From IMG/VR virus record IMGVR_UViG_3300045988_028806, positions 1-19,254 of that record: a DNA stretch of 19,254 nt. The stretch is one strand, 5' to 3'. The translations under genes were made by a program, and so were the position numbers. The notes beneath the pieces are model-generated. The model was not told the DNA's origin, made no database searches, and saw nothing but the letters and a program-made list of their open reading frames with translations. Origin of the DNA: a virus. Shown here piece after piece: positions 2,527-19,254 of the stretch (positions within the stretch are counted from its first letter, which is position 1; each line of letters opens with the position of its first letter).

Positions 2527-2964
2527 ATGGCTAACAACGAACTGACCGTAACGAACGGCAACAACTTTTCCGCAAACGGCACTAACGCCGTATCCCACTT
2601 TTTCGATACCTCCTCTGTGGATGGCAAGATGGCGCTGTACAACGCCATGCAAACCGCCGACAGGGTAGACGAACACCTTAACGAGCCGCTGCACGTCACC
2701 AACGTGCTGGCGCAGGCCATTGAAGTCGCCAATCAGGAGACTGGCGAAATCAATCCGTCCACCCGAGTCGTCATTCACGCGGAAGAAGGCGACTTTGCCG
2801 CCGCTTCTCCCACGCTGGCGCATGCTTTTGGTAGTCTGTTCGCCATTTTCGGCACGCCGAACACATGGAATCAGCCACTTGCCCTAAAGGTAGTGGAAAA
2901 GAAGAGTCGCCGTGGCTATAAATTTTTCGACCTTGAACTGGTGTCGGAAAAAGGCCGCAAGTAG
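2527..2964 (+). CDS. Single-stranded DNA-binding protein, phi29 p5-like (145 aa)
   Basis: By-eye matches to remembered phi29 p5: FDTSSVDGKMALYNA vs FDTETLEGQIKIFNA; RVVIHAEEGDFAAASPTLAHAFGSL vs TTIFAADGSLYSAISKTVAEAASDL; LKVVEKKSRRGYKFFDLELVS vs VKVVQGTSSKGNVFFSLQLS. SD AAGGAAAGG lies upstream. Confidence 0.8.
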   Translation: MANNELTVTNGNNFSANGTNAVSHFFDTSSVDGKMALYNAMQTADRVDEHLNEPLHVTNVLAQAIEVANQETGEINPSTRVVIHAEEGDFAAASPTLAHAFGSLFAIFGTPNTWNQPLALKVVEKKSRRGYKFFDLELVSEKGRK

Positions 2965-3026
2965 ACAACTTGTCCACATCATATGATAACATGGTAACGT
3001 CCTTGTAGGGATGTTGCCGCCAGACT

Positions 3027-3063
3027 CACCCCCGTCGTTTCCATCCTTGCGGCGGGGGTGTTT
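3027..3063 (+). terminator. GC-rich hairpin, weak intrinsic terminator or attenuator candidate
   Basis: CACCCCCG (3027-3034) pairs with CGGGGGTG (3053-3060), followed by only TTT. It lies in the 122-nt gap between the SSB and terminal-protein genes. Confidence 0.4.
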
Positions 3064-3086
3064 CATACTTACACAAGGGAGAGGTT

Positions 3087-4034
3087 GTGGCAAAACGTAA
3101 AAAAACCAACCGACGCGCCAACAACCTGAAACGCAACGCCGCAATCAGGTCGGCACAGGTACGCCGAGAACAATCAGTCAGAGACTACAGTACCGGACGC
3201 CTCCCCAAGCAAATCACCGAAACATTTCTAGGAAAACTCAGCGCCCAACAGCTCGAACAGGTGGCACGCCGCATTGGGCAGGAGTTTGGAGAACAACAGC
3301 AAGCCTTAAAGGCGCGAGATAATGAGCCGTATCAGGTTGTTCCCAACGTCCATGTCACGAAACTTGACCGTGAGATGGCATCGCGGCTTCCGATAAGCGA
3401 TGCGGAAATCGTCGCCGCCCCGTCGAAACGTCGGAAAACATTGCGGCAGCAGCAGCGCCGTCGTATTGAAGCACGACAGAAAATCAAGCGTGCTCAACAA
3501 TTCGAGGCGCTGAGTATGGCTAGTTATACCGTGGGTGAAATGCGTGAAATGGAACGTGCGGGGGAATCGCCGTTCGACGTGTTAGGGACTCACACGGTCG
3601 GAGGTTCGGCACGTGACGAACTCATGCGAAGCCGTGCGAACGTGTTCGGCTCAGAGCGCGGGATAAGCCATGCGCGCGTGATGATTCGAGAGGGGAATCG
3701 GAAGAGGCTTGAACGGGAGATGCTTGAATACGCCGGACTCGTAGGGCGTGCGCCGTTACGTGCGGGAACTAGGCAGATTTCCAAGAGCGAGGGTGTTTCG
3801 GATTTTGATAAGGCTGCCCAGCAACTCGAAGCGTTCGATTCTAACGTCGCCCAAAAATTCGCATCCCTGTCGAGCCGTCAAAAACGATGGCTGATAAACA
3901 ACACGAATTTCAGCGTTGTTGTGCGTGAGGCAACATGGTATAATGATAAAGCACACAAATGGGAGACTAAAGCAGACGCGGGAGATGTAGAGACACGACT
4001 TGATGAATGGATGACCAGCGCGGCAAGACACTAA
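3087..4034 (+). CDS. Terminal protein candidate (315 aa, very basic)
   Basis: GTG 3087 after SD GGGAGAGG. It sits immediately upstream of the protein-primed DNA polymerase, as phi29 gene 3 does. The N-terminus is K/R-rich (MAKRKKTNRRANNLKR). I see no convincing sequence similarity to phi29 p3, so the call rests on synteny and composition. Confidence 0.55.
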   Translation: MAKRKKTNRRANNLKRNAAIRSAQVRREQSVRDYSTGRLPKQITETFLGKLSAQQLEQVARRIGQEFGEQQQALKARDNEPYQVVPNVHVTKLDREMASRLPISDAEIVAAPSKRRKTLRQQQRRRIEARQKIKRAQQFEALSMASYTVGEMREMERAGESPFDVLGTHTVGGSARDELMRSRANVFGSERGISHARVMIREGNRKRLEREMLEYAGLVGRAPLRAGTRQISKSEGVSDFDKAAQQLEAFDSNVAQKFASLSSRQKRWLINNTNFSVVVREATWYNDKAHKWETKADAGDVETRLDEWMTSAARH

Positions 4035-4048
4035 AAAAGGATGGAATT

Positions 4049-5509
4049 ATGAAAGAGCGTCGAACGGCGGCAACAGACGGCGCAACACTATTGACGGACG
4101 ACGGTATAACGCCATTGATGGTGAACGCCGTTATCCGTCTCACTATGCTTGATCATCACACGCGCGTATGGTGCGCTCATGGATGGCAGGACATCAAGCC
4201 TATAGCGGCTGAGTTATTGAGGCGTCTTCCCTTGCAATCGAATCCAGCAAAGGATGGGGTCTGGGGTACTTTTAACATTCGTGGTCATTTCTACAGTTTC
4301 CGGGTACGTATGGGCGGTATCACTGTGGATTTTCTGGACGTGCGCAATATTACACGCGATGACGGACTGAATGTTTCACGTGAAACGTTTGGTGGTGTGA
4401 ACGACTTGGAAACCACGTGGAACATCGCGCAGGAATGCGACGACCTAAAACTCAAGGGCAATACCATAGCGTCAATGGCTATGACTGACTATATTGACGG
4501 GGATTATGCTGATTTCAAGCGTCACTTTCCACCATTGACTCAGGCCGACTATCGTCGAATGCGCCCCTCCTATTATGGCGCGATAGTGTACAGCAGGGCG
4601 GGCGAATACCGAGATTGCAGGAGTTGGGATGTGAATAGCCTCTATCCGAGTATCATGCGCGACTTTGCTATGCCCGTAGGCTCACCCATATGGTATGAAG
4701 GAAAATACCATGATGATGCTGATTGCCCGCTGCATATCGATGTTGTCTCGTTCGATGCGCGACTGAAATCGGGAAAAACGGCGACGCTCACAAACATCCT
4801 ACCAGTATGGGGGTATGAGGGCGAACGTCTGGACAGTACGCTAGGCGTCGTCACCATGCCGGTGACTGACGTGGATTGGCAAACTCTGACGGAAAACTAT
4901 GACGTGCATGTGTGGGAGCATATCGGCGGCTGGAAATTCCGCAAATCACATGGACTCTACCATGCGTATGTGGACAAATGGTTCCACGTGAAACAAACCG
5001 AAACCGGCGAGCGTCGGCAGATGGCGAAACTATTGTTGAACTCGTTGGTGGGAAAATTCGGAGCTTCGCTTTACCGGCCTATGCTGCACCCGAAGCCTTC
5101 CGGCGACGGCGGCGTGGATTTTACCGTGGACAAACCCGAGTCGGCCAACTCACTCGCATGGCTACCGACCGCCGCATATGTCAACGCCTACGGTCGGCAA
5201 ATACTGTCCCGCGCGATGAACGCGAACGCCGACCGCGTACTTTACGCCGATACGGACAGCATGATATTGGAGGGATTGGACGCACCCGTGGGCGTCGAGA
5301 CGGACGATAGGAAACTGGGCGCGTGGAAAAACGACCACACCTATGAAAAACTTCGCATTCTTGGTAATCGCAAATATTGCGGCGTAGAGGAAGACGGCAG
5401 TACGGTGATGCGGTTGAGTGGCGTGCATCGAGCCGCCCCTATCCCCTACGACGATTTTCTGCCGAGGTCGCGCCATGTCAACGATGACGGCTGTTTTTTT
5501 GTGCTATAA
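4049..5509 (+). CDS. Protein-primed family-B DNA polymerase (486 aa)
   Basis: Motif A WDVNSLYPSIM (from nt 4628), motif B KLLLNSLVGKFG (5027-5062), motif C LYADTDS (5240-5260) and a KxY-like GNRKYCG. All are close to phi29 DVNSLYPAQM / KLMLNSLYGKF / YCDTDS / KTY. Start ATG 4049 has AAAAGGA 7 nt upstream; the ORF-track start 4007 overlaps the upstream gene. Confidence 0.92.
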   Translation: MKERRTAATDGATLLTDDGITPLMVNAVIRLTMLDHHTRVWCAHGWQDIKPIAAELLRRLPLQSNPAKDGVWGTFNIRGHFYSFRVRMGGITVDFLDVRNITRDDGLNVSRETFGGVNDLETTWNIAQECDDLKLKGNTIASMAMTDYIDGDYADFKRHFPPLTQADYRRMRPSYYGAIVYSRAGEYRDCRSWDVNSLYPSIMRDFAMPVGSPIWYEGKYHDDADCPLHIDVVSFDARLKSGKTATLTNILPVWGYEGERLDSTLGVVTMPVTDVDWQTLTENYDVHVWEHIGGWKFRKSHGLYHAYVDKWFHVKQTETGERRQMAKLLLNSLVGKFGASLYRPMLHPKPSGDGGVDFTVDKPESANSLAWLPTAAYVNAYGRQILSRAMNANADRVLYADTDSMILEGLDAPVGVETDDRKLGAWKNDHTYEKLRILGNRKYCGVEEDGSTVMRLSGVHRAAPIPYDDFLPRSRHVNDDGCFFVL

Positions 5510-5510
5510 T
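5502..5510 (+). promoter_or_regulatory. Consensus extended -10 promoter TGCTATAAT overlapping the polymerase stop codon
   Basis: TGnTATAAT is an exact consensus. The predicted TSS is near 5517, at the 5' edge of the structured ORF-free region. Confidence 0.5.
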
Positions 5511-5516
5511 GGCTAG

Positions 5517-5680
5517 TAGCGGGGTGTGCGTCCCGAGCCGATTCGATGGCCCGGCCGGTGGGCAAATCGGTAAGGCGATCCGGTCGGATGTAGACGTGCG
5601 TAGCCAACGCCCATCGACGGCGAGGGAACCCGCACAGCCTAGCAATTCCGGCACGGCAGCGTGATTGCTGCCGTGCCATC
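5517..5680 (+). ncRNA. Candidate structured RNA (pRNA-like: three-way-junction domain plus 3' hairpin), or else a structured late-operon leader
   Basis: No plausible + strand ORF here. Hand-folded long interrupted helix 5521-5549/5611-5640 closing hairpins 5551-5587 and 5598-5610. A separate perfect 11-bp hairpin lies at 5650-5660/5667-5677. See findings. Confidence 0.35.
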
Positions 5681-5697
5681 TACCTTAAGAGGTGACT

Positions 5698-6039
5698 ATG
5701 GACGACACTGAAAATGATGACAAGCCGGACACCACGCCCGATGTTGAGCCGAACGCGACCGCCGACGACAATACGCCGAACCCGGAGCCTGAAACGCAGG
5801 GCGACAACGAACCCGAAGATGCGGGCGACGACAAGAACGCCGACATGGCCGACCGTATCAGCGCATTGGAGGCAACCGTGGCGGAACTGTCCAAAACCGT
5901 CGAAGCGATGCGCGACGCAGCCGCCGACCACGTGCTAAACGACGGCCCAGACGACAATGCGACGCCGGAATCGGCTGAAATGACCGACGACGACTATAAC
6001 GGAACCTACAGTACGTTCGACGACCTATACGAAGACTGA
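5698..6039 (+). CDS. Scaffolding protein candidate (113 aa, extremely acidic, central coiled coil)
   Basis: ATG 5698 with SD AAGAGG 5 nt upstream. It lies directly upstream of the capsid gene, as phi29 gp7 does. D/E-rich, with the helical segment ADRISALEATVAELSKTVEAMRDAAA. Confidence 0.6.
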   Translation: MDDTENDDKPDTTPDVEPNATADDNTPNPEPETQGDNEPEDAGDDKNADMADRISALEATVAELSKTVEAMRDAAADHVLNDGPDDNATPESAEMTDDDYNGTYSTFDDLYED

Positions 6040-6061: not shown

Positions 6062-6964
6062 ATGCCTACTACCCCGGTGGTGACGCCGAAGCAGCAGCTT
6101 CGACCGCTCACCGAATTCAACAACGCCCAGATTCTCAACATGATTCGTAACGAGGCGTCGCCAGAGTACCAGAGGCGAATGCCCTCAGCCACTCAGATGA
6201 ATATGGACAGGCAGATGGCTACGCTTATGTCGTCCACCCAGCTTAAGAATGAGTTTTACGCCGCATTGGTGAACCGTATCGGCGGCACTTATGTGAACAC
6301 GTGGCGTTGGAATAATCCGCTCAGTGTTTTCCAGCGTGCATCGCAGGCGTATGGCGACACGTGGCAGGAAATCGCCGTGGGAATGCCGCTTGCGCAGGTC
6401 TATGACCCTAATGCGGAATACCTCGGCGCGGATAACTTCCGCAAGTGGAAAATCGACGTGGATTCGCTCTATCACCGTCTGGACTTTGCGCACTGGTATC
6501 CCGCGACCACGGACGACAAGACGCTTCAGCGTGCCTTCACTTCCGAAAACGGTCTGGCCTCGCTCACTTCGCAGATTCTCACATCCTGTTACAATGCGGC
6601 TGAAGTTGACCTTTTCGAGTCTTTGTGCCACCAGTTCGTTGAATATGCGAAACTCGGTGGTTATTGGCGCGTCCACATGGACAACGACCTGAACAACATG
6701 GGTACGCCCGTGACATGTTGCGTCAGATTCGCGCGTGGGCCGACACGCTTAAATTCGTTTCGACCAAGTACAACGCGCGACACATGCCGACCTTCGCACG
6801 TCCAGACGAACTCGTTTTATTCTGCTCGCCGGAAGTCAAGTCGGCGCTTGACGTGCAGGGCCTCGCGACCGTCTTCCAGCGTACGGACGCCGAACCGACC
6901 ATTGACCGGATTATCGTCATTCCACAAGACAGGTTCGGCATGGATGGCGTGCAAGCCATCCTGA
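6062..6964 (+). CDS. Major capsid protein, N-terminal part (phi29 gp8-like); meaningful only to about 6709, R/S-rich out-of-frame tail after that
   Basis: By-eye matches to phi29 gp8: NEFYAALVNRIG vs NDFITSLVDRIG; NNPLSVFQRA vs NNPLKKFKKG; ILTSCYNAAEVDLFE vs IINAIYNSAEVDEYE. After ..DNDLNNMGT the translation turns into junk. Confidence 0.85.
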   Translation: MPTTPVVTPKQQLRPLTEFNNAQILNMIRNEASPEYQRRMPSATQMNMDRQMATLMSSTQLKNEFYAALVNRIGGTYVNTWRWNNPLSVFQRASQAYGDTWQEIAVGMPLAQVYDPNAEYLGADNFRKWKIDVDSLYHRLDFAHWYPATTDDKTLQRAFTSENGLASLTSQILTSCYNAAEVDLFESLCHQFVEYAKLGGYWRVHMDNDLNNMGTPVTCCVRFARGPTRLNSFRPSTTRDTCRPSHVQTNSFYSARRKSSRRLTCRASRPSSSVRTPNRPLTGLSSFHKTGSAWMACKPS

Positions 6965-7788
6965 CCACCGACAAGTTCCTGATTGACATCCCGGTCATCA
7001 ACGAAATGACCCAGCAGACCAATCCGGTCAACATCAACTCGGTTAACCACTATCTGCACGTGCAGCACATCATCTCAGTGTCCGGCTTCGCCCCGGCAGT
7101 GATGTTCTGGACTGGTGCGGCGTCCACTGCGAAGACGGTGGCACCTACCGGCACGACAGCCAAGACACCGACGTTCCAACTCAAACTCGCGATGTACGGC
7201 GGTGGCACGTCCACCCCGTCGAATGTGGCGCGTGGCGGAGCGGTGCAGGTCATTGCCGACACGTCCATCACTAACGACGGTACGGCTACGTTCCGCTCGG
7301 ATGCGGTCGAATATCGCATCGGCGACACTGCCAAGCCGAAGAGCGATTACACGTATGTCTCGCCTACCGGCGTGCTCGTGGTCGGCCTTGACGAACCGAA
7401 CACCACCATCCCGGTAACGGCGACCGCCTTGTACACGAATCCGGCGACGCCGGAGGTGCCGGGCACTGTATCCGCGGCTCTGGACGTGCCAGTGGTGGGT
7501 GACGGTGTTATCGGATTCAACCCGTCGATTATCGCATCCATCGCTGTGACCGTTCCGGGCGTGACTGTTGGGCATGTGGCGCAGGCGACCGCCGTGGCGA
7601 CCATGATTGACGGGCGTACCGCCGACGTGACCGCACAGGCCGCATGGACAGCCGGCACTTCGGCGAACGCCACCGTGTCCGAGTCCGGTGTGGTGACTGG
7701 CGTCAAGGCGGGCAGCTCTGACATCACCGCCACGCTGTTCGGTGTGTCTGGAAAAGAGAGCGTGACCGTGACTGCCGCCGCCGCGTGA
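6664..7788 (+). CDS. Major capsid protein, C-terminal part (gp8-like core continues from about 6706) with Ig-like (Big_2-type) C-terminal domains
   Basis: [17 protein letters not shown] vs phi29 [41 protein letters not shown] vs [48 protein letters not shown] vs [20 protein letters not shown]. The C-terminus ..[29 protein letters not shown] is a typical Big_2 signature. Confidence 0.85.
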   Translation: [374 protein letters not shown]

Positions 7789-7794
7789 TATAAT
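7786..7794 (+). promoter_or_regulatory. Consensus extended -10 promoter TGATATAAT overlapping the capsid stop codon
   Basis: Exact TGnTATAAT, with its TG supplied by the TGA stop (7786-7788). Same arrangement as at 5502-5510. Confidence 0.45.
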
Positions 7795-7840
7795 GAGAAG
7801 GTAGCCGGTTGGCTACTCTCTCTCACGGTGTGATGCAGGA

Positions 7841-10239: not shown

Positions 10240-11190
10240 ATGAGTAGGTCTAAAAAGAACCGAGTTGGCGGCGCGTTGCACCCACGCGGCAATTACGCGA
10301 AAACACGCGCCGTCACGCTTGATGACATGTATCTTCATTTGCTGATGGAACTCGCATTGAACCGTTTCAGTTGGCGCGGATTACCGCCCACTGTGGACGA
10401 ACGTTGGTTGGAAATATGCCTGTGCGAATATGGTTGCGCGTTGTTTTTCGAAGACAAGCGTATCGGCAGGTTCCTCGTAACGCAGGCGGGCTATCAAGGT
10501 AAGTTGAATGTGTACAATAATCCGACACGTTTCGAGCCGGTAGGAGTCAATTACCACTACAGGCAGCTTAAGGCCGGTTCGGAATGTATTCCAATTTGGG
10601 ATAATCGAATGCGCGTCGGATTCAAGCCGACATTATGGCAGTACGCGCGACGCCTCGCTGACATTGACAAGGCGTATGACGTGAACTTGGAGAGCTTGAA
10701 GCTGCCGACAATCATCACGGCCGACCCTCGCACCAAGCTCACCGTTCAAAACATGCTCCAGCAACGTCAGGACGGTCAGGATTATATTATCGGATACGAC
10801 TCGCTTGACCCCGGTAGCTCGTTCCAACCGTGGCCTAATACGACCCCCTATCTTTTGGACAAGTTCGTTCAGCAAAAAACGCAGGTGACTAATGAGGTGT
10901 TGGGGTATCTCGGCATTCAGTCGTCCGGCACAGAGAAAAAGGAACGGCTCATCTCCGATGAGGTGGCACAAGCCAATGAGAAAGTCGACGTGTTCCGGCT
11001 GAGTTTTCTTAAGGCGCGGCAGGCTGCGGCGACTGAGATTAACCGATTGTGGCCGCAGCTGAACGTGTGGGTCGAGTATGCGGACGCGCAAAGCTCCGGC
11101 GTGCCCAACGCACTTGACGCTAGCGCTTCGGGTACGACGGATATTGACATGCCCGCCTCTTATGACGCGGGTATCGGAGGTGTATTGTAA
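10240..11190 (+). CDS. Portal / upper collar connector, phi29 gp10-like (316 aa)
   Basis: By-eye matches to phi29 gp10: [16 protein letters not shown] vs [37 protein letters not shown] vs [32 protein letters not shown] vs EKKERMVTDEV. Similar length (316 vs 309 aa). Confidence 0.92.
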   Translation: [316 protein letters not shown]

Positions 11191-15084: not shown

Positions 15085-16341
15085 ACAGCACTATACGCGA
15101 TGTATGTTATCGGCACGGTTGAAAGCAATTGCGATTGGGGCGCGTGCAACTACGTTGACGCCATCACTGTGGGCATGATGCAATGGTACGGCAGTCGCGC
15201 CCGCAATCTCTTGGAACGAGGGCGCACCGCCGACCCGGACGGGTGGAACACGTTCGCCTCGGCGGCTCCCACACTGGCGCAGCAGGTGCAGGCGAATGAC
15301 ATCAACTGGACGGCACGCTACCTATCCACCGCCGAGGGTAATGCGTGGAAAACGTGGGCGCAGCGGGACGAAAACCACGCTTTCCAAGAGGCGCAATGGG
15401 AGGCGGATTGGGACGGGTATCAGTCAACTATGACCAATTTCGGGTTTCCTCCCAATAATATCAAGGAACGTATTATGTGGGCGTGCGCTTACCACCAGTC
15501 TCCCGCACGGGCGCAGCGCGTACTCGCGTCATGTTCGGCCACTGCCACGCTTGAGCTGATTTGCACGACAATCTTGGCGGACGGCGTGCTGGGGCAATAC
15601 CGCAATCGATACACCACCGCATACAATCTATTGAACGCATGGGATGGCACGTCTGCGCCGCCTGATTTTGGCCAGATCTCCGAACCGTCCGACACGCCGG
15701 GTGGCGACCAACCCGGCATCGACGGAAAGCCTGGCAGCACCGCGTGGATACAATTGCAAGGCGACAACCTTGTCCATCACAGTGGGGGAACTGCTTCCAT
15801 CTTCGTAAAAAGCTCCGCACAGACATGGATATATCGGACTTCCGAGTCCACAGAGCCGGGCGGCGGGCAAACCGGTGGCGGTTCAAGCTCGGGCAGCAGC
15901 GGCGAGGATGCGGCGCGTGTCGTGGAATGGATGCAGTCACGAATCGGCAAATACGCCTACTCGCAGGGGGCAGGACGGTTAGACCCGGATTCAAGCGGGT
16001 ACGGCGATTGCAGTTCGGTTTGTTGGCGCGCATATCTGGATGTGCTCGGTATCGACGTGGGCACATGGACGGGTCAGATGGCAGGCAAGGGTACGCGCGT
16101 ATGCGGTAGCTCTGACACAAGCGTGTCGGACGCCATTCGCATGGCACACGCCGCCGATTTGCTGTTGCTGGACTGGGGGGCGTACACGCAGTCATGGGAC
16201 CATGTGGAAATGTTCACGGGCGATGGCAAGGACGAAACATTATCGCATGGAGGGCCGGAGAACGGCCCGAATCTGTTCGCGGCGTCCGGTGAGATGAATA
16301 TGGCGAGACGGTGGGAGATACGCCGGTATATCATCAACTAG
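15073..16341 (+). CDS. Tail-associated peptidoglycan hydrolase (422 aa): N-terminal lysozyme-like domain plus C-terminal NlpC/P60 endopeptidase
   Basis: The C-terminus has the NlpC/P60 pattern (GYGDCSSVCWRAY ... WDHVEMF; Cys and His catalytic candidates). The N-terminus GTVESN..GMMQW resembles the phi29 gp13 lysozyme-like motif GNMQSES..GLVQW. A Gly/Ser linker joins them. The position matches phi29 gene 13. Confidence 0.75.
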   Translation: MAITTALYAMYVIGTVESNCDWGACNYVDAITVGMMQWYGSRARNLLERGRTADPDGWNTFASAAPTLAQQVQANDINWTARYLSTAEGNAWKTWAQRDENHAFQEAQWEADWDGYQSTMTNFGFPPNNIKERIMWACAYHQSPARAQRVLASCSATATLELICTTILADGVLGQYRNRYTTAYNLLNAWDGTSAPPDFGQISEPSDTPGGDQPGIDGKPGSTAWIQLQGDNLVHHSGGTASIFVKSSAQTWIYRTSESTEPGGGQTGGGSSSGSSGEDAARVVEWMQSRIGKYAYSQGAGRLDPDSSGYGDCSSVCWRAYLDVLGIDVGTWTGQMAGKGTRVCGSSDTSVSDAIRMAHAADLLLLDWGAYTQSWDHVEMFTGDGKDETLSHGGPENGPNLFAASGEMNMARRWEIRRYIIN

Positions 16342-16343
16342 TG

Positions 16344-16381
16344 CAACAATAGACCGGTGGATATCTACCGGTTCTGTTGTT
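16344..16381 (+). terminator. Long imperfect hairpin after the tail-lysin gene (terminator candidate)
   Basis: CAACAATAGACCGGTGG / CTACCGGTTCTGTTGTTG pairs over about 17 bp with one bulge, one mismatch and one G-U. T-rich sequence follows. Promoter box 16388-16396 lies directly downstream. Confidence 0.5.
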
Positions 16382-16387
16382 GTCGTA

Positions 16388-16396
16388 TGGTATGAT
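16388..16396 (+). promoter_or_regulatory. Extended -10 candidate TGGTATGAT, 7 nt before the ATPase ATG (leaderless mRNA candidate)
   Basis: Exact copy of the ITR 9-mer. The TATGAT hexamer is at 16391-16396, the spacer is GGATAGT, and the ATG is at 16404. No SD. The N-terminus from 16404 (MEKSL) matches the phi29 gp16 N-terminus (MDKSL). Confidence 0.5.
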
Positions 16397-16403
16397 GGAT
16401 AGT

Positions 16404-17501
16404 ATGGAAAAGTCTCTAAGCGAGGGCGATTATTACGATTACGGGCGCGTGTTGTCATATCACGCGCCTTGGATGTTCGTTATCGGCGCTCGCGGCCTCG
16501 GTAAAACCTATGGTGCTAAAAAGCTTGTCATAGGCGACTGGATTAAAAAACGATGGCAGTTCATTTATTTACGACGAACAGCCGAGGAGCAGAAGAATAA
16601 AGGCACGTGGTTTGCGGATATCGCAGAACAATATCCAGAGTTGGAGTTTAGAGTGTCCGGCAACCAAGCCGAATGTCACTGGTTGGATGATAGGGACGCT
16701 GTGACTGATAAGCATGAAAAGCAACGCCCCACATGGCACGTCATGGGGTACTTCATCGCCCTATCTCAGGCTGGACAGGTGAAATCGGTGGCCTACCCCA
16801 AGGTGCGAACCATTATTTTTGATGAAATCTTCCCGGATAATATGCGGTATTTGGGCGGCGAAGTAACCGCACTTGAAGAATTTTATAACACAGTTGACCG
16901 CTGGAGCGACAGAGTTCGCGTTATCATGTGCAGCAACGCCGTGACGTTAGCCAACCCGTATTTTTCGGCATTTAATATCAACCTCAAACCACAATTGGAT
17001 AATCACACGCAATATCAGCGATATTGTGACGGGTTTGTTATGGTGGAATTAGCTGATTACGGCGGGTTCAGCGCCAAGGTTGCCACGTCGAAATTCGGGC
17101 AGTTTTTGCGCAGATACGACGAAAATTATGCGAATTATGCAATCAACAACGATTTTAGGGACAACGCCAATACTCTCATTAGTGATTTTAATAACGCCGG
17201 ATATGCGTTCACATTAAAAACCAACGAATACGGTATTTTCAACATTTACCAGCAATTAAGCGACACCGACGAAGTATTGTATATCATCACGAAAAAACAA
17301 CCGAAAATCACCCGTAATTTTACGTTCGATTATCGACTTGTGGACAATAATTGCATAATGCTCAAGCGCTCCGACGATATGACGCAAAAAATATTGAATG
17401 CTTATCGCGTTGGTAAACTACGGTTCGAGACCCCGCAAATTAAAGCGGAGTTCAGCATGATTCTTGGCGGCTTGTTGCAGCAATCAGGTATAAGAAAGTG
17501 A
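16404..17501 (+). CDS. DNA packaging (encapsidation) ATPase, phi29 gp16-like (365 aa)
   Basis: By-eye matches to phi29 gp16: MEKSL..VLSYHAPWMFVIGARGLGKTY vs MDKSL..MLSYDRILNFVIGARGIGKSY (Walker A); QFIYLRR vs QFIYVRR; RTIIFDEI vs STIVFDEF (Walker B); VRVIMCSNAVTLANPYF vs VRCICLSNAVSVVNPYF. Confidence 0.93.
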   Translation: MEKSLSEGDYYDYGRVLSYHAPWMFVIGARGLGKTYGAKKLVIGDWIKKRWQFIYLRRTAEEQKNKGTWFADIAEQYPELEFRVSGNQAECHWLDDRDAVTDKHEKQRPTWHVMGYFIALSQAGQVKSVAYPKVRTIIFDEIFPDNMRYLGGEVTALEEFYNTVDRWSDRVRVIMCSNAVTLANPYFSAFNINLKPQLDNHTQYQRYCDGFVMVELADYGGFSAKVATSKFGQFLRRYDENYANYAINNDFRDNANTLISDFNNAGYAFTLKTNEYGIFNIYQQLSDTDEVLYIITKKQPKITRNFTFDYRLVDNNCIMLKRSDDMTQKILNAYRVGKLRFETPQIKAEFSMILGGLLQQSGIRK

Positions 17502-18802: not shown

Positions 18803-19024
18803 TTAGAAATTATATGCACGTTCCGCTCTAGCGAGTACATCCAAGTGTTGCTCAACACTATGCATAGGATTGACATTAAACGCCATCATATAGTTGTAGA
18901 TACGAGCTAGATTAGCGGTTGACATTGCAGTATGCGCATAATGCGCGAAGATACTGTTAGCGAGTGGATTATCTATATAATTGAACTCTGATACAGTCAA
19001 TTGGCGAAGAATGATAGTATTCAT
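18803..19024 (-). CDS. Hypothetical right-end early protein (73 aa)
   Basis: The only - strand gene. Its ATG at 19024 is preceded by the ITR-borne SD and promoter. It begins MNT like the left-end gene. The region is AT-rich. No motif recognised. Confidence 0.6.
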   Translation of the reverse strand: MNTIILRQLTVSEFNYIDNPLANSIFAHYAHTAMSTANLARIYNYMMAFNVNPMHSVEQHLDVLARAERAYNF

Positions 19025-19254
19025 TTTTATTACCTCCCTATCGGTTGATACTCACATCATACCACACCACAAAAAACAACACACCCAAAACACAAAAAAT
19101 AAAAGCAAAACAAGACAAAAAAACGAACACAAAGAAAGCAGAGATAAAAAACACAGAAAGCAACAGCAACACAAAAACACACAAAGCAACAACAATGCGA
19201 AACACAGAATAGAGCAGTTATGGAAAAAGGATAGCTGCTGGGACCCCTCCCCTC
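19025..19254. repeat. Right inverted terminal repeat (230 bp)
   Basis: Exact reverse complement of 1-230. Confidence 0.97.
19056..19064 (-). promoter_or_regulatory. Extended -10 promoter candidate TGGTATGAT inside the right ITR (drives 18803-19024)
   Basis: Mirror image of 191-199, by ITR identity. Confidence 0.5.

Follow-up and report, generated by a model that had tools for sequence, protein, structure and literature searches.

The window examined here is the whole 19,254-bp stretch of IMG/VR virus record IMGVR_UViG_3300045988_028806, a complete, linear, phi29-like genome, and the question it raises concerns the non-coding gap between the gene for its protein-primed DNA polymerase and a putative scaffold gene: does the plus strand of this gap specify a prohead or packaging RNA (pRNA), as a first-pass annotation of the sequence had proposed from a fold drawn by hand? 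In reviews published up to 2024, pRNA is a feature found solely in phi29 and its Bacillus-phage relatives (PMC11476376, PMC5066667), and all 12 of the 12 'new' pRNAs of 2025 are relatives of phi29, GA-1 or DLc1 (PMC12670572). We nevertheless consider it likely that positions 5517–5680 (+), a segment of about 160 nt, encode the prohead/packaging RNA of a Bifidobacterium-type phi29-like phage.

A folded RNA after the polymerase gene

RNAfold assigns positions 5517–5691 a minimum free energy (MFE) of −88.7 kcal/mol (z −5.2); 200 dinucleotide shuffles yielded no fold as stable. Among 468 segments of 165 nt scanned genome-wide on both strands, 5517–5681 (+) is the most extreme (z about −6.5, a single value that is noisy at 12 shuffles per segment). 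The predicted structure consists of a three-way-junction domain spanning 5519–5643, a 6-nt linker (5644–5649) and a 3' hairpin, or 'domain II' (5650–5677). The domain is closed by a long, interrupted A helix, the 5' strand of which (5519–5549) pairs with 5611–5643 in the blocks 5525–5530/5631–5636, 5531–5534/5624–5627, 5537–5540/5618–5621 and 5543–5549/5611–5617, to which the MFE structure adds 5519–5523/5638–5643. Within it, the C helix pairs CCGGCCGG (5551–5558) with CCGGUCGG (5580–5587), and the C/E arm is bulged on its 5' side alone, by the seven nucleotides UGGGCAA (5559–5565), before it ends in a short E helix and loop (AUCG, loop GUAAGG, CGAU; 5566–5579). A single-stranded junction, AUGUAGACGU (5588–5597), then leads from the C helix to the D hairpin (5598–5610), in which GCGU and ACGC (5598–5601/5607–5610) enclose the loop AGCCA. 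The bulge and the D loop would be the equivalents of the CE ('right-hand') and D ('left-hand') loops of phi29 pRNA.

The A, C and D helices and the 3' hairpin had all been drawn in the first-pass annotation, and the MFE structure reproduces them to the base. Its E helix (5566–5569/5576–5579) is a different case, as it is absent from the MFE structure but is supported by covariation among relatives, which have AUCG/CGAU, CGCG/CGCG or CGUA/UACG at this place. The 3' hairpin had been given 11 bp; it has 12 (5650–5661/5666–5677) when a closing G-U pair is counted, and its loop is GUGAUU (5661–5666).

The element is present in 80 of 80 close relatives from IMG/VR (capsid 93–98% identical) and is complete in 79 of them, the copy in L055 being incomplete at a contig end. 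In 77 relatives its mean pairwise identity is 91.9%, as compared with 82.9% for the polymerase 3' end, 84.2% for the scaffold gene and 87.6% for the 5' end of the major capsid protein (MCP) gene. Within this window clade, 97.5% of alignment cells are paired, against 30–43% when the pairing partner is slid, and eight pairs have changed on both sides, four of these in the 3' hairpin. One pair in the A helix switches between GC, AU and GU, the closing pair of the D hairpin varies between UA, CG and UG, and the A helix contains U/C changes opposite G; there are several such changes, and they therefore point to an RNA of the plus strand only. The junction at 5588–5597 is nearly invariant in the clade, and its AUGUA is also retained in L091, a more distant relative.

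Homologues of the capsid and polymerase proteins brought in these more distant lineages (L081, L088–L091, L093, L095–L097 and L099, with polymerases 36–74% identical). All of them have the same layout, in which the polymerase stop codon is succeeded by an extended −10 box, then by about 125 nt that fold into a multibranched domain, and by a strong hairpin before the scaffold gene, and their primary sequences are very different from one another's. A covariance model built from the window clade, R1, has a single match in this genome, on the plus strand, and matches L091 (E 3e-13) as well as L089, L090, L088 and L096 (E 3e-5 to 6e-4), in each case at full length, on the plus strand and at the homologous site only. 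With default filters R1 does not match L081, L095 or clade 2, a set of 82 loci (80 from IMG/VR) that carry the RNA directly after the polymerase stop codon, as do the close relatives and eight further metagenomic lineages, and that include the cultured phages BD811P2, BD811P3 and BP1. A further model, R2, matches L095 (E 0.0026) and, weakly, clade 2 (E 0.06). It has no match in the RNA gap of L081, in which phage its sole match below E = 1 (E 0.17, 5728–5780) is some 2 kb farther downstream, close to where the MCP open reading frame (ORF) ends, and it finds nothing significant in Av-1, CI55P1, L082 or L084. The family also extends to the minus strand of phage Cp-1 (L092, NC_001825), where R1 with its filters off matches 4656–4803 at full length (E 0.0014), and to that of L087 (IMGVR_UViG_3300045988_093229), an AT-rich 15-kb gut phage in which R2 matches 2908–3047 (E 3.6e-4). 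Scans of viral contigs with P0012 and P0115 gave one locus each. None of the GenBank records examined annotates the RNA.

Across lineages, compensatory double changes are found in 45 of 54 pairs and in all six helices, with 95% of positions paired against 31–38% when slid, although the alignment is model-fitted, which inflates the percentage paired and not the diversity of pair types. The changes affect 8 of 11 outer and 13 of 15 inner pairs of the A helix, 7 of 8 pairs in the C helix, all four in both the E and the D helices, and 9 of 12 in the 3' hairpin. The C helix has a wholly different sequence in L091, L090, L096 and Cp-1, with pairing retained, and an independent RNAalifold consensus for clade 2 has compensatory changes in 18 of its 38 pairs. 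Covariation in homologous regions was the first check that had been suggested for the hand-drawn fold, and it bears out every helix. Taking the fold and these comparisons together, we regard the existence of a conserved structured RNA at this locus as virtually certain. The GUGAUU loop of the 3' hairpin is also seen in L088, L089, L090, L095, L096 and clade 2, although the stems have no common sequence, and this suggests that the loop may be recognised by something and so be more than a terminator loop.

Other identities for the segment were considered and set aside. A 51-codon ORF at 5509–5664 has its ATG in this genome alone (TATAATGG here, TATAATAA/GA elsewhere) and is interrupted by 1-nt indels in relatives, which agrees with the earlier statement that the gap holds no plausible plus-strand ORF. 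An element of the minus strand, or one acting at the level of DNA, does not account for the conserved plus-strand G-U pairs, and the covariance models match the plus strand alone. No tRNA or tmRNA was found for the structured region, and Rfam searches at the gathering cut-off and at E ≤ 10, the latter applied to 5400–5800, returned no credible family; the best match, to the S15-Halobacteria leader (17.5 bits against a cut-off of 49), is regarded as noise. R1 and R2 found no second pRNA candidate at the genome ends.

The plan of phi29 pRNA and its paired loops

How closely does this RNA follow the plan of a known pRNA? Using dimensions taken from the Rfam alignment of RF00044, phi29 pRNA runs from the A helix through 1 nt to a 9-bp C helix, a 9-nt 5' bulge, a 4-bp E helix and the E loop UUGAGU, and back along the 3' strand of C, which has no 3' bulge, to UUU, a 6-bp D helix with the loop UGGUU and the 3' strand of A. 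The RNA in the window runs in the same order, from A through 1 nt to an 8-bp C helix, a 7-nt 5' bulge, a 4-bp E helix and the E loop GUAAGG, and back, again with no 3' bulge, to a 10-nt junction, a 4-bp D helix with a 5-nt loop, the 3' strand of A, the linker and the hairpin. The E stem-loop of phi29, CUGA-UUGAGU-UCAG, has the same dimensions as that of the window (4 bp and a 6-nt loop), and the E loop of L090, L095 and L087, UUGAAU, is one base from that of phi29. In both RNAs a domain I of about 120–125 nt has paired ends that close a three-way junction, and in both a 3' domain II follows after a short linker. On the predicted fold, then, the topology and nearly all the dimensions of the window RNA coincide with those of phi29 pRNA. 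The two differ in that the window RNA is GC-rich and its domain II is a single hairpin with the conserved GUGAUU loop, unlike that of phi29; its gene lies between those for polymerase and scaffold, on the late strand, whereas the pRNA gene of phi29 lies at the left genome end under the early promoter A1; and its likely host belongs to the Actinomycetota (Bifidobacterium) and not to Bacillus.

The Cp-1 RNA provides a second point of comparison, as it has the same architecture; its bulge is the 7-nt AUGGUUA, and UAACCA is contained in its D loop. Its E loop, UCAAGG, resembles the GUAAGG of the window and its genome position, between the replication module and the scaffold gene, is equivalent, although it is on the opposite strand and has a C helix of 11 bp and a D loop of 11 nt. 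A pRNA was in fact proposed for Cp-1 by Martin et al. (1996), as that work is cited in PMC6266182, its identity with the element at 4656–4803 being unverified, and the published covariance models also fail on Cp-1 (PMC6266182), as does RF00044 in our hands. The first-pass annotation had called the genomic location new. It is not the left end used by Bacillus phages, but an equivalent place is occupied, on the other strand, in Cp-1, and with the 1996 proposal and a 'packaging RNA' annotated in the actinobacterial phage Av-1 (see below) the location is not wholly new.

In the phi29 family, the bulge of one pRNA molecule pairs with the D loop of its neighbour and the two co-vary, which serves as a criterion for authenticating new pRNAs (PMC12670572). 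In the window, the kissing triplets would be the bulge GGC (5561–5563) and the D-loop GCC (5603–5605), and in aligned close relatives the bulge triplet is GGC in all but L002 (GGA) and the D-loop triplet is GCC in all. An alternative register that had been offered for this contact, UGG with CCA, is not conserved. The pairing changes from lineage to lineage. Bulge and D loop are GGC/GCC in the window clade at large, extended to GGCAA/UUGCC (5 bp, or 6 bp with a closing U) in L023, L079 and L065, where the D loop is UUUGCCG; they are UGGCA/UGCCA in L091, GACUA/UAGUC in L090, GUCG/UGAC in L096, GCCA/UGGC in clade 2, CACA/UGUG in L081, UGGUUA/UAACCA (6 bp) in Cp-1 and GACA/UGUC in L087. For seven independent sequence classes, the cognate assignment of bulges to D loops outscores every other one of the 5040 permutations, and 20,000 shuffles of the loops produced none that equals it. 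Within clade 2 the same trend can be followed on a smaller scale, as GCCA/UGGC occurs 53 times, GCCA/UGGU 6 times and ACCA/UGGU 3 times, with no case of ACCA/UGGC.

A new pRNA is recognised in the field by its three-way-junction fold, by loops that pair and co-vary, and by the presence of gp10 and gp16 in the genome (PMC12670572). As the first-pass annotation had recognised, both protein partners are encoded here, the gp10 portal at 10240–11190 (PF05352 Phage_connector, 3.1e-42) and a gp16-type packaging ATPase at 16377–17501 (PF05894 Podovirus_Gp16, 8.7e-44), such that the phages of the phi29 pRNA family (phi29, M2/Nf, SF5, GA-1, DLc1 and others) and the window have in common a protein-primed podovirus with both proteins. 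The portal N-terminus (10240–10270) is basic, MSRSKKNRVGG. That of phi29 gp10, MARKRSN, is likewise basic and has been reported to bind pRNA. It is because of the fold, its covariation, the loop pair, these partners and the free-standing homologues described below that we favour a packaging role, and on the same grounds (the covariation, the phi29 plan, the co-varying loops, the two protein partners and the free-standing copies) the suggestion that phi29-like phages outside Bacillus can have a pRNA-like RNA has strong support.

Several observations weigh against this identification. The junction strand of 10 nt is longer than the UUU of phi29. RF00044, which gives phi29 itself 145 bits as a positive control, has no match in the genome at its gathering score or in 5400–5800 at E ≤ 10, so the check by Rfam model that had been suggested came out negative, and R1 and R2 in turn do not match phi29 pRNA; from these reciprocal failures it follows that homology to the Bacillus pRNAs is inferred from architecture only. 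In the permutation test, loop boundaries were set by hand and L088, L089 and L095 were excluded for an ambiguous D arm; the loops of L088 show at most 2–3 bp, and the last D-loop position in clade 2 could alternatively close a triloop. The complementarity between the loops could also be an intramolecular tertiary contact and not an intermolecular one, and sequence cannot separate the two. Finally, no terminator separates the RNA from the late mRNA in this genome, and the two are contiguous, a point to which we return.

If the RNA acts in trans, packaging is not the only role that one might imagine for it. It could be a small RNA engaged in host takeover, anti-defence or the regulation of replication, with a convergent likeness to pRNA; in favour of this, neither a sequence nor a covariance-model link to Bacillus pRNAs was found, and the RNA always adjoins the end of the polymerase gene. 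It is then harder to see why the match to pRNA should run element by element and include a co-varying loop pair that is specific to pRNA, or why every genome in which the RNA was found should also encode homologues of gp10 and gp16, the RNA being physically joined to gp16 in L087 and, it appears, in CI55P1. The phage in the window should, moreover, require a pRNA, and its genome has no other conserved non-coding element that is strongly structured. We therefore think a non-packaging small RNA improbable.

Fused and free-standing copies

What kind of transcript carries the RNA, and could it simply be a regulatory segment of the late message? An extended −10 promoter, TGCTATAAT, located by pattern search at 5502–5510 (+), where relatives conserve it, overlaps the polymerase stop codon TAA (5507–5509), and transcription is predicted to start at about 5517–5519. 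Three TGNTATAAT sites were found in the genome by pattern search, against 0.41 expected, and all three are at gene boundaries, which sustains the earlier report of a promoter box before the RNA. The other boxes are at 3936–3944, about 60 nt upstream of the polymerase start, and at 7786–7794, where the box overlaps the capsid stop codon, precedes the tail-knob gene and is followed by a small hairpin (7795–7822); taken together, the boxes at 3936, 5502 and 7786 look like the promoter set of the phage. Close relatives keep the box in the same place as TGYTATRAT (TGCTATAAT, TGTTATAAT, TGCTATGAT), with TGATATAAT in L029 alone, and in the distant lineages its forms are TGCTATAAT, TGTTATAAT, TGCTATGAT, TGTTATGAT or TGCTATAGT.

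The other end of the transcript is less clear-cut. A Rho-independent terminator, understood as a GC-rich stem with an immediate U-tract, is not found at the 5650–5677 hairpin, whose tail is AUCUACCUU and contains no U-tract, and a terminator scan of the genome omits the site. The Shine-Dalgarno GAGG and the ATG (5698) of the scaffold gene, which is identified as acidic and putative from sequence and translation, lie at 5689–5700 (+), and AAGRGGTGA-ATG at the scaffold start is conserved in relatives. As this Shine-Dalgarno is about 12 nt past the hairpin, the space is too small for a further promoter. Because there is no U-tract and the scaffold Shine-Dalgarno is so close, the RNA in this genome appears also to form the 5' end of the late mRNA, and a discrete RNA would here require partial termination at the 3' hairpin, or processing or cleavage.

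This arrangement invites a reading of the RNA as a 5' leader that acts in cis on the late (scaffold/capsid) operon, where it would stabilise the mRNA or control scaffold translation, with the loops forming an intramolecular pseudoknot. In the window and in L081, L088–L091, L095 and L096, the RNA does have the sole nearby promoter on one side and the scaffold Shine-Dalgarno on the other, and its 3' hairpin is about 12–38 nt from the start codon and has no U-tract, so that the late genes must be transcribed through it. Relatives with other layouts speak differently. In clade 2, the GUGAUU hairpin is followed by a U-tract (AUUUUAUUUU), and so forms an intrinsic terminator, and then by a second TGATATAAT promoter before the scaffold gene, so that the RNAs end ahead of a separate late promoter; promoter, RNA, terminator and second promoter occur in that order in BD811P2, BD811P3 and BP1. 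The Cp-1 RNA has its own promoter (TTGACA-17-TGATATGAT) and a hairpin with a U7 terminator (UUUUUUAUUUU), and, being antisense to the late genes, occupies the space that separates the scaffold gene from the replication genes. The L087 RNA lies directly downstream of the gp16 ATPase gene (3049–4080, minus strand), convergent with the polymerase gene, and thus follows gp16 on the other strand. A discrete transcript with its own promoter and terminator is accordingly predicted in clade 2, BD811P2, BD811P3, BP1, Cp-1 and L087, and in Cp-1 and L087 the RNA is upstream of no gene at all, whereas a leader would always be upstream and in the same transcript. Nor is there an Rfam cis-regulatory match above noise. 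These predicted layouts exclude a purely cis-acting leader, and we consider a leader an unlikely account of the family as a whole; a leader function may be an added role in the window clade.

Within the cultured Bifidobacterium phages the gap after the polymerase gene measures 180–230 nt. In BD811P2, BP1 and BD811P3 (L182, L183 and L185) the RNA occupies the unannotated gap at about 2795–3020, and in BadAztec1 (L184) that at 2833–3010. The RefSeq record of Cp-1 leaves the RNA unannotated as well, and a plus-strand 'terminator' that it annotates at 4659–4682 is the 3' hairpin of the RNA.

An RNA that follows a strong promoter immediately and precedes both a terminator-like hairpin and the late operon is also reminiscent of processive antitermination or attenuation, in the manner of HK022 put, in which it would modify RNA polymerase or govern how far transcription reads through the 3' hairpin. 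The clade 2 order of promoter, RNA, terminator and late genes would suit such a device, as would the conserved GUGAUU loop with its suggestion of recognition. Clade 2, however, has its own late promoter past the terminator, and in Cp-1 and L087 the RNA faces the end of a convergent gene and has no downstream target for antitermination. A three-way junction with co-varying kissing loops is, moreover, unlike the two-hairpin design of put, and an antiterminator seems to us very improbable. As the RNA is conserved across the layouts of clade 2, Cp-1 and L087, a trans-acting RNA fits and a cis leader or a put-like antiterminator does not, which returns us to a packaging RNA as the preferred reading.

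Some further loci are of interest in this connection. In Clostridium phage CI55P1 (L188), the 150-nt gap between polymerase and gp16 (4748–4897, +) folds into what seems to be the same architecture, with UACCA/UGGUA as its loops, a resemblance judged by eye in an element that R2 did not detect. The record for Av-1 (L186, NC_009643) annotates a misc_RNA at 16295–16402 as 'packaging RNA', which amounts to a pRNA claim in an actinobacterial phi29-like phage. That RNA is at the right genome end, overlaps minus-strand ORFs and has a weak fold (−16.5 kcal/mol for 136 nt), and it is not evidently of the same family as the one in the window. Elsewhere in Av-1, upstream of ORF8 and the head gene, 4465–4615 contains a strong terminator-like hairpin in a structured region (−58 kcal/mol for 151 nt), and this gap may be a better place to search for a pRNA than the annotated RNA.

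The phage and the possible work of its RNA

What sort of phage would depend on this RNA? The genome is bounded by perfect, T-rich inverted terminal repeats of 230 bp (1–230 and 19025–19254) with short internal repeats, similar in length to those of Cp-1 (236 bp). Nearly all inferred genes are on the plus strand; a minus-strand ORF of 73 codons lies near the right end (18803–19024). Profile searches, the source of the gene identities given here, place a phi29-type single-stranded DNA-binding protein at 2527–2964, the protein-primed type-B DNA polymerase at 4007–5509 and a phi29-type MCP at 6062–7788, and also recognise a gp9 tail knob, a lower collar, a GDPD-domain tail protein, a holin and an endolysin. 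The capsid gene is broken near 6704 into overlapping frames (6062–6964 and 6664–7788), and lacks 13 nt (AGTTCGGAGACGG) that are present in 5 of 5 aligned relatives, where the MCP is one protein of 570–580 aa; the break is either an assembly error or a defective variant.

Compared with GenBank phages by megablast, the whole genome has no match at the nucleotide level, and its relatives were found through their capsid and polymerase proteins. By protein, the closest cultured phages are the Bifidobacterium phages BD811P1-3, BP1 and BadAztec/BadAargau (about 35% polymerase identity), and one close metagenomic polymerase is labelled Bifidobacterium breve. Because of these nearest phages and that label, the host is most likely a Bifidobacterium.

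By analogy with phi29, copies of the RNA would join head to tail through kissing pairs between bulge and D loop and build a ring at the empty prohead's portal vertex. The C/E arm would touch the basic portal N-termini and the capsid, and the A helices would point outward to dock the gp16-type ATPase, which would itself have no portal-binding nuclease domain. Once the terminal-protein-capped genome had been packaged, the RNA would depart from the particle. In the window clade, the free RNA might be produced when some transcripts terminate at the 3' hairpin, or be cleaved from the late transcript for scaffold and capsid. Were that so, its release would link how much pRNA is supplied to how much scaffold and capsid is; in any case, with RNA and late mRNA fused in this clade, the manner in which the RNA is set free becomes a testable question.

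As far as its sequences and predicted folds allow us to say, the family is a divergent, pRNA-like one that lies beyond the coverage of Rfam, is abundant in gut phages and polymerase-proximal, and is fused to the late mRNA in the window clade. With somewhat more conviction than doubt, we would go further and suggest that pRNA is an ancestral and general part of phi29-type motors. In this scheme a family invisible to RF00044 would extend across Bifidobacterium phages, phage Cp-1 of Streptococcus and phages of Clostridium-type and other gut Firmicutes; it would have been re-wired repeatedly, as late-mRNA-fused, free-standing, antisense and gp16-linked forms, with the RNA of the window clade cut or terminated from the 5' end of the capsid mRNA.

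Such a family challenges the view of pRNA as a peculiarity of Bacillus phages, and the cultured Bifidobacterium phages that carry the RNA make the hypothesis experimentally testable. If it is correct, it would offer very divergent, GC-rich sequences with which to probe the role of the RNA in the motor, as well as new three-way-junction and kissing-loop modules for RNA nanotechnology. RNA-geared packaging motors would then also be widespread, since hundreds of genomes of gut phages, those of cultured Bifidobacterium phages among them, carry the family.

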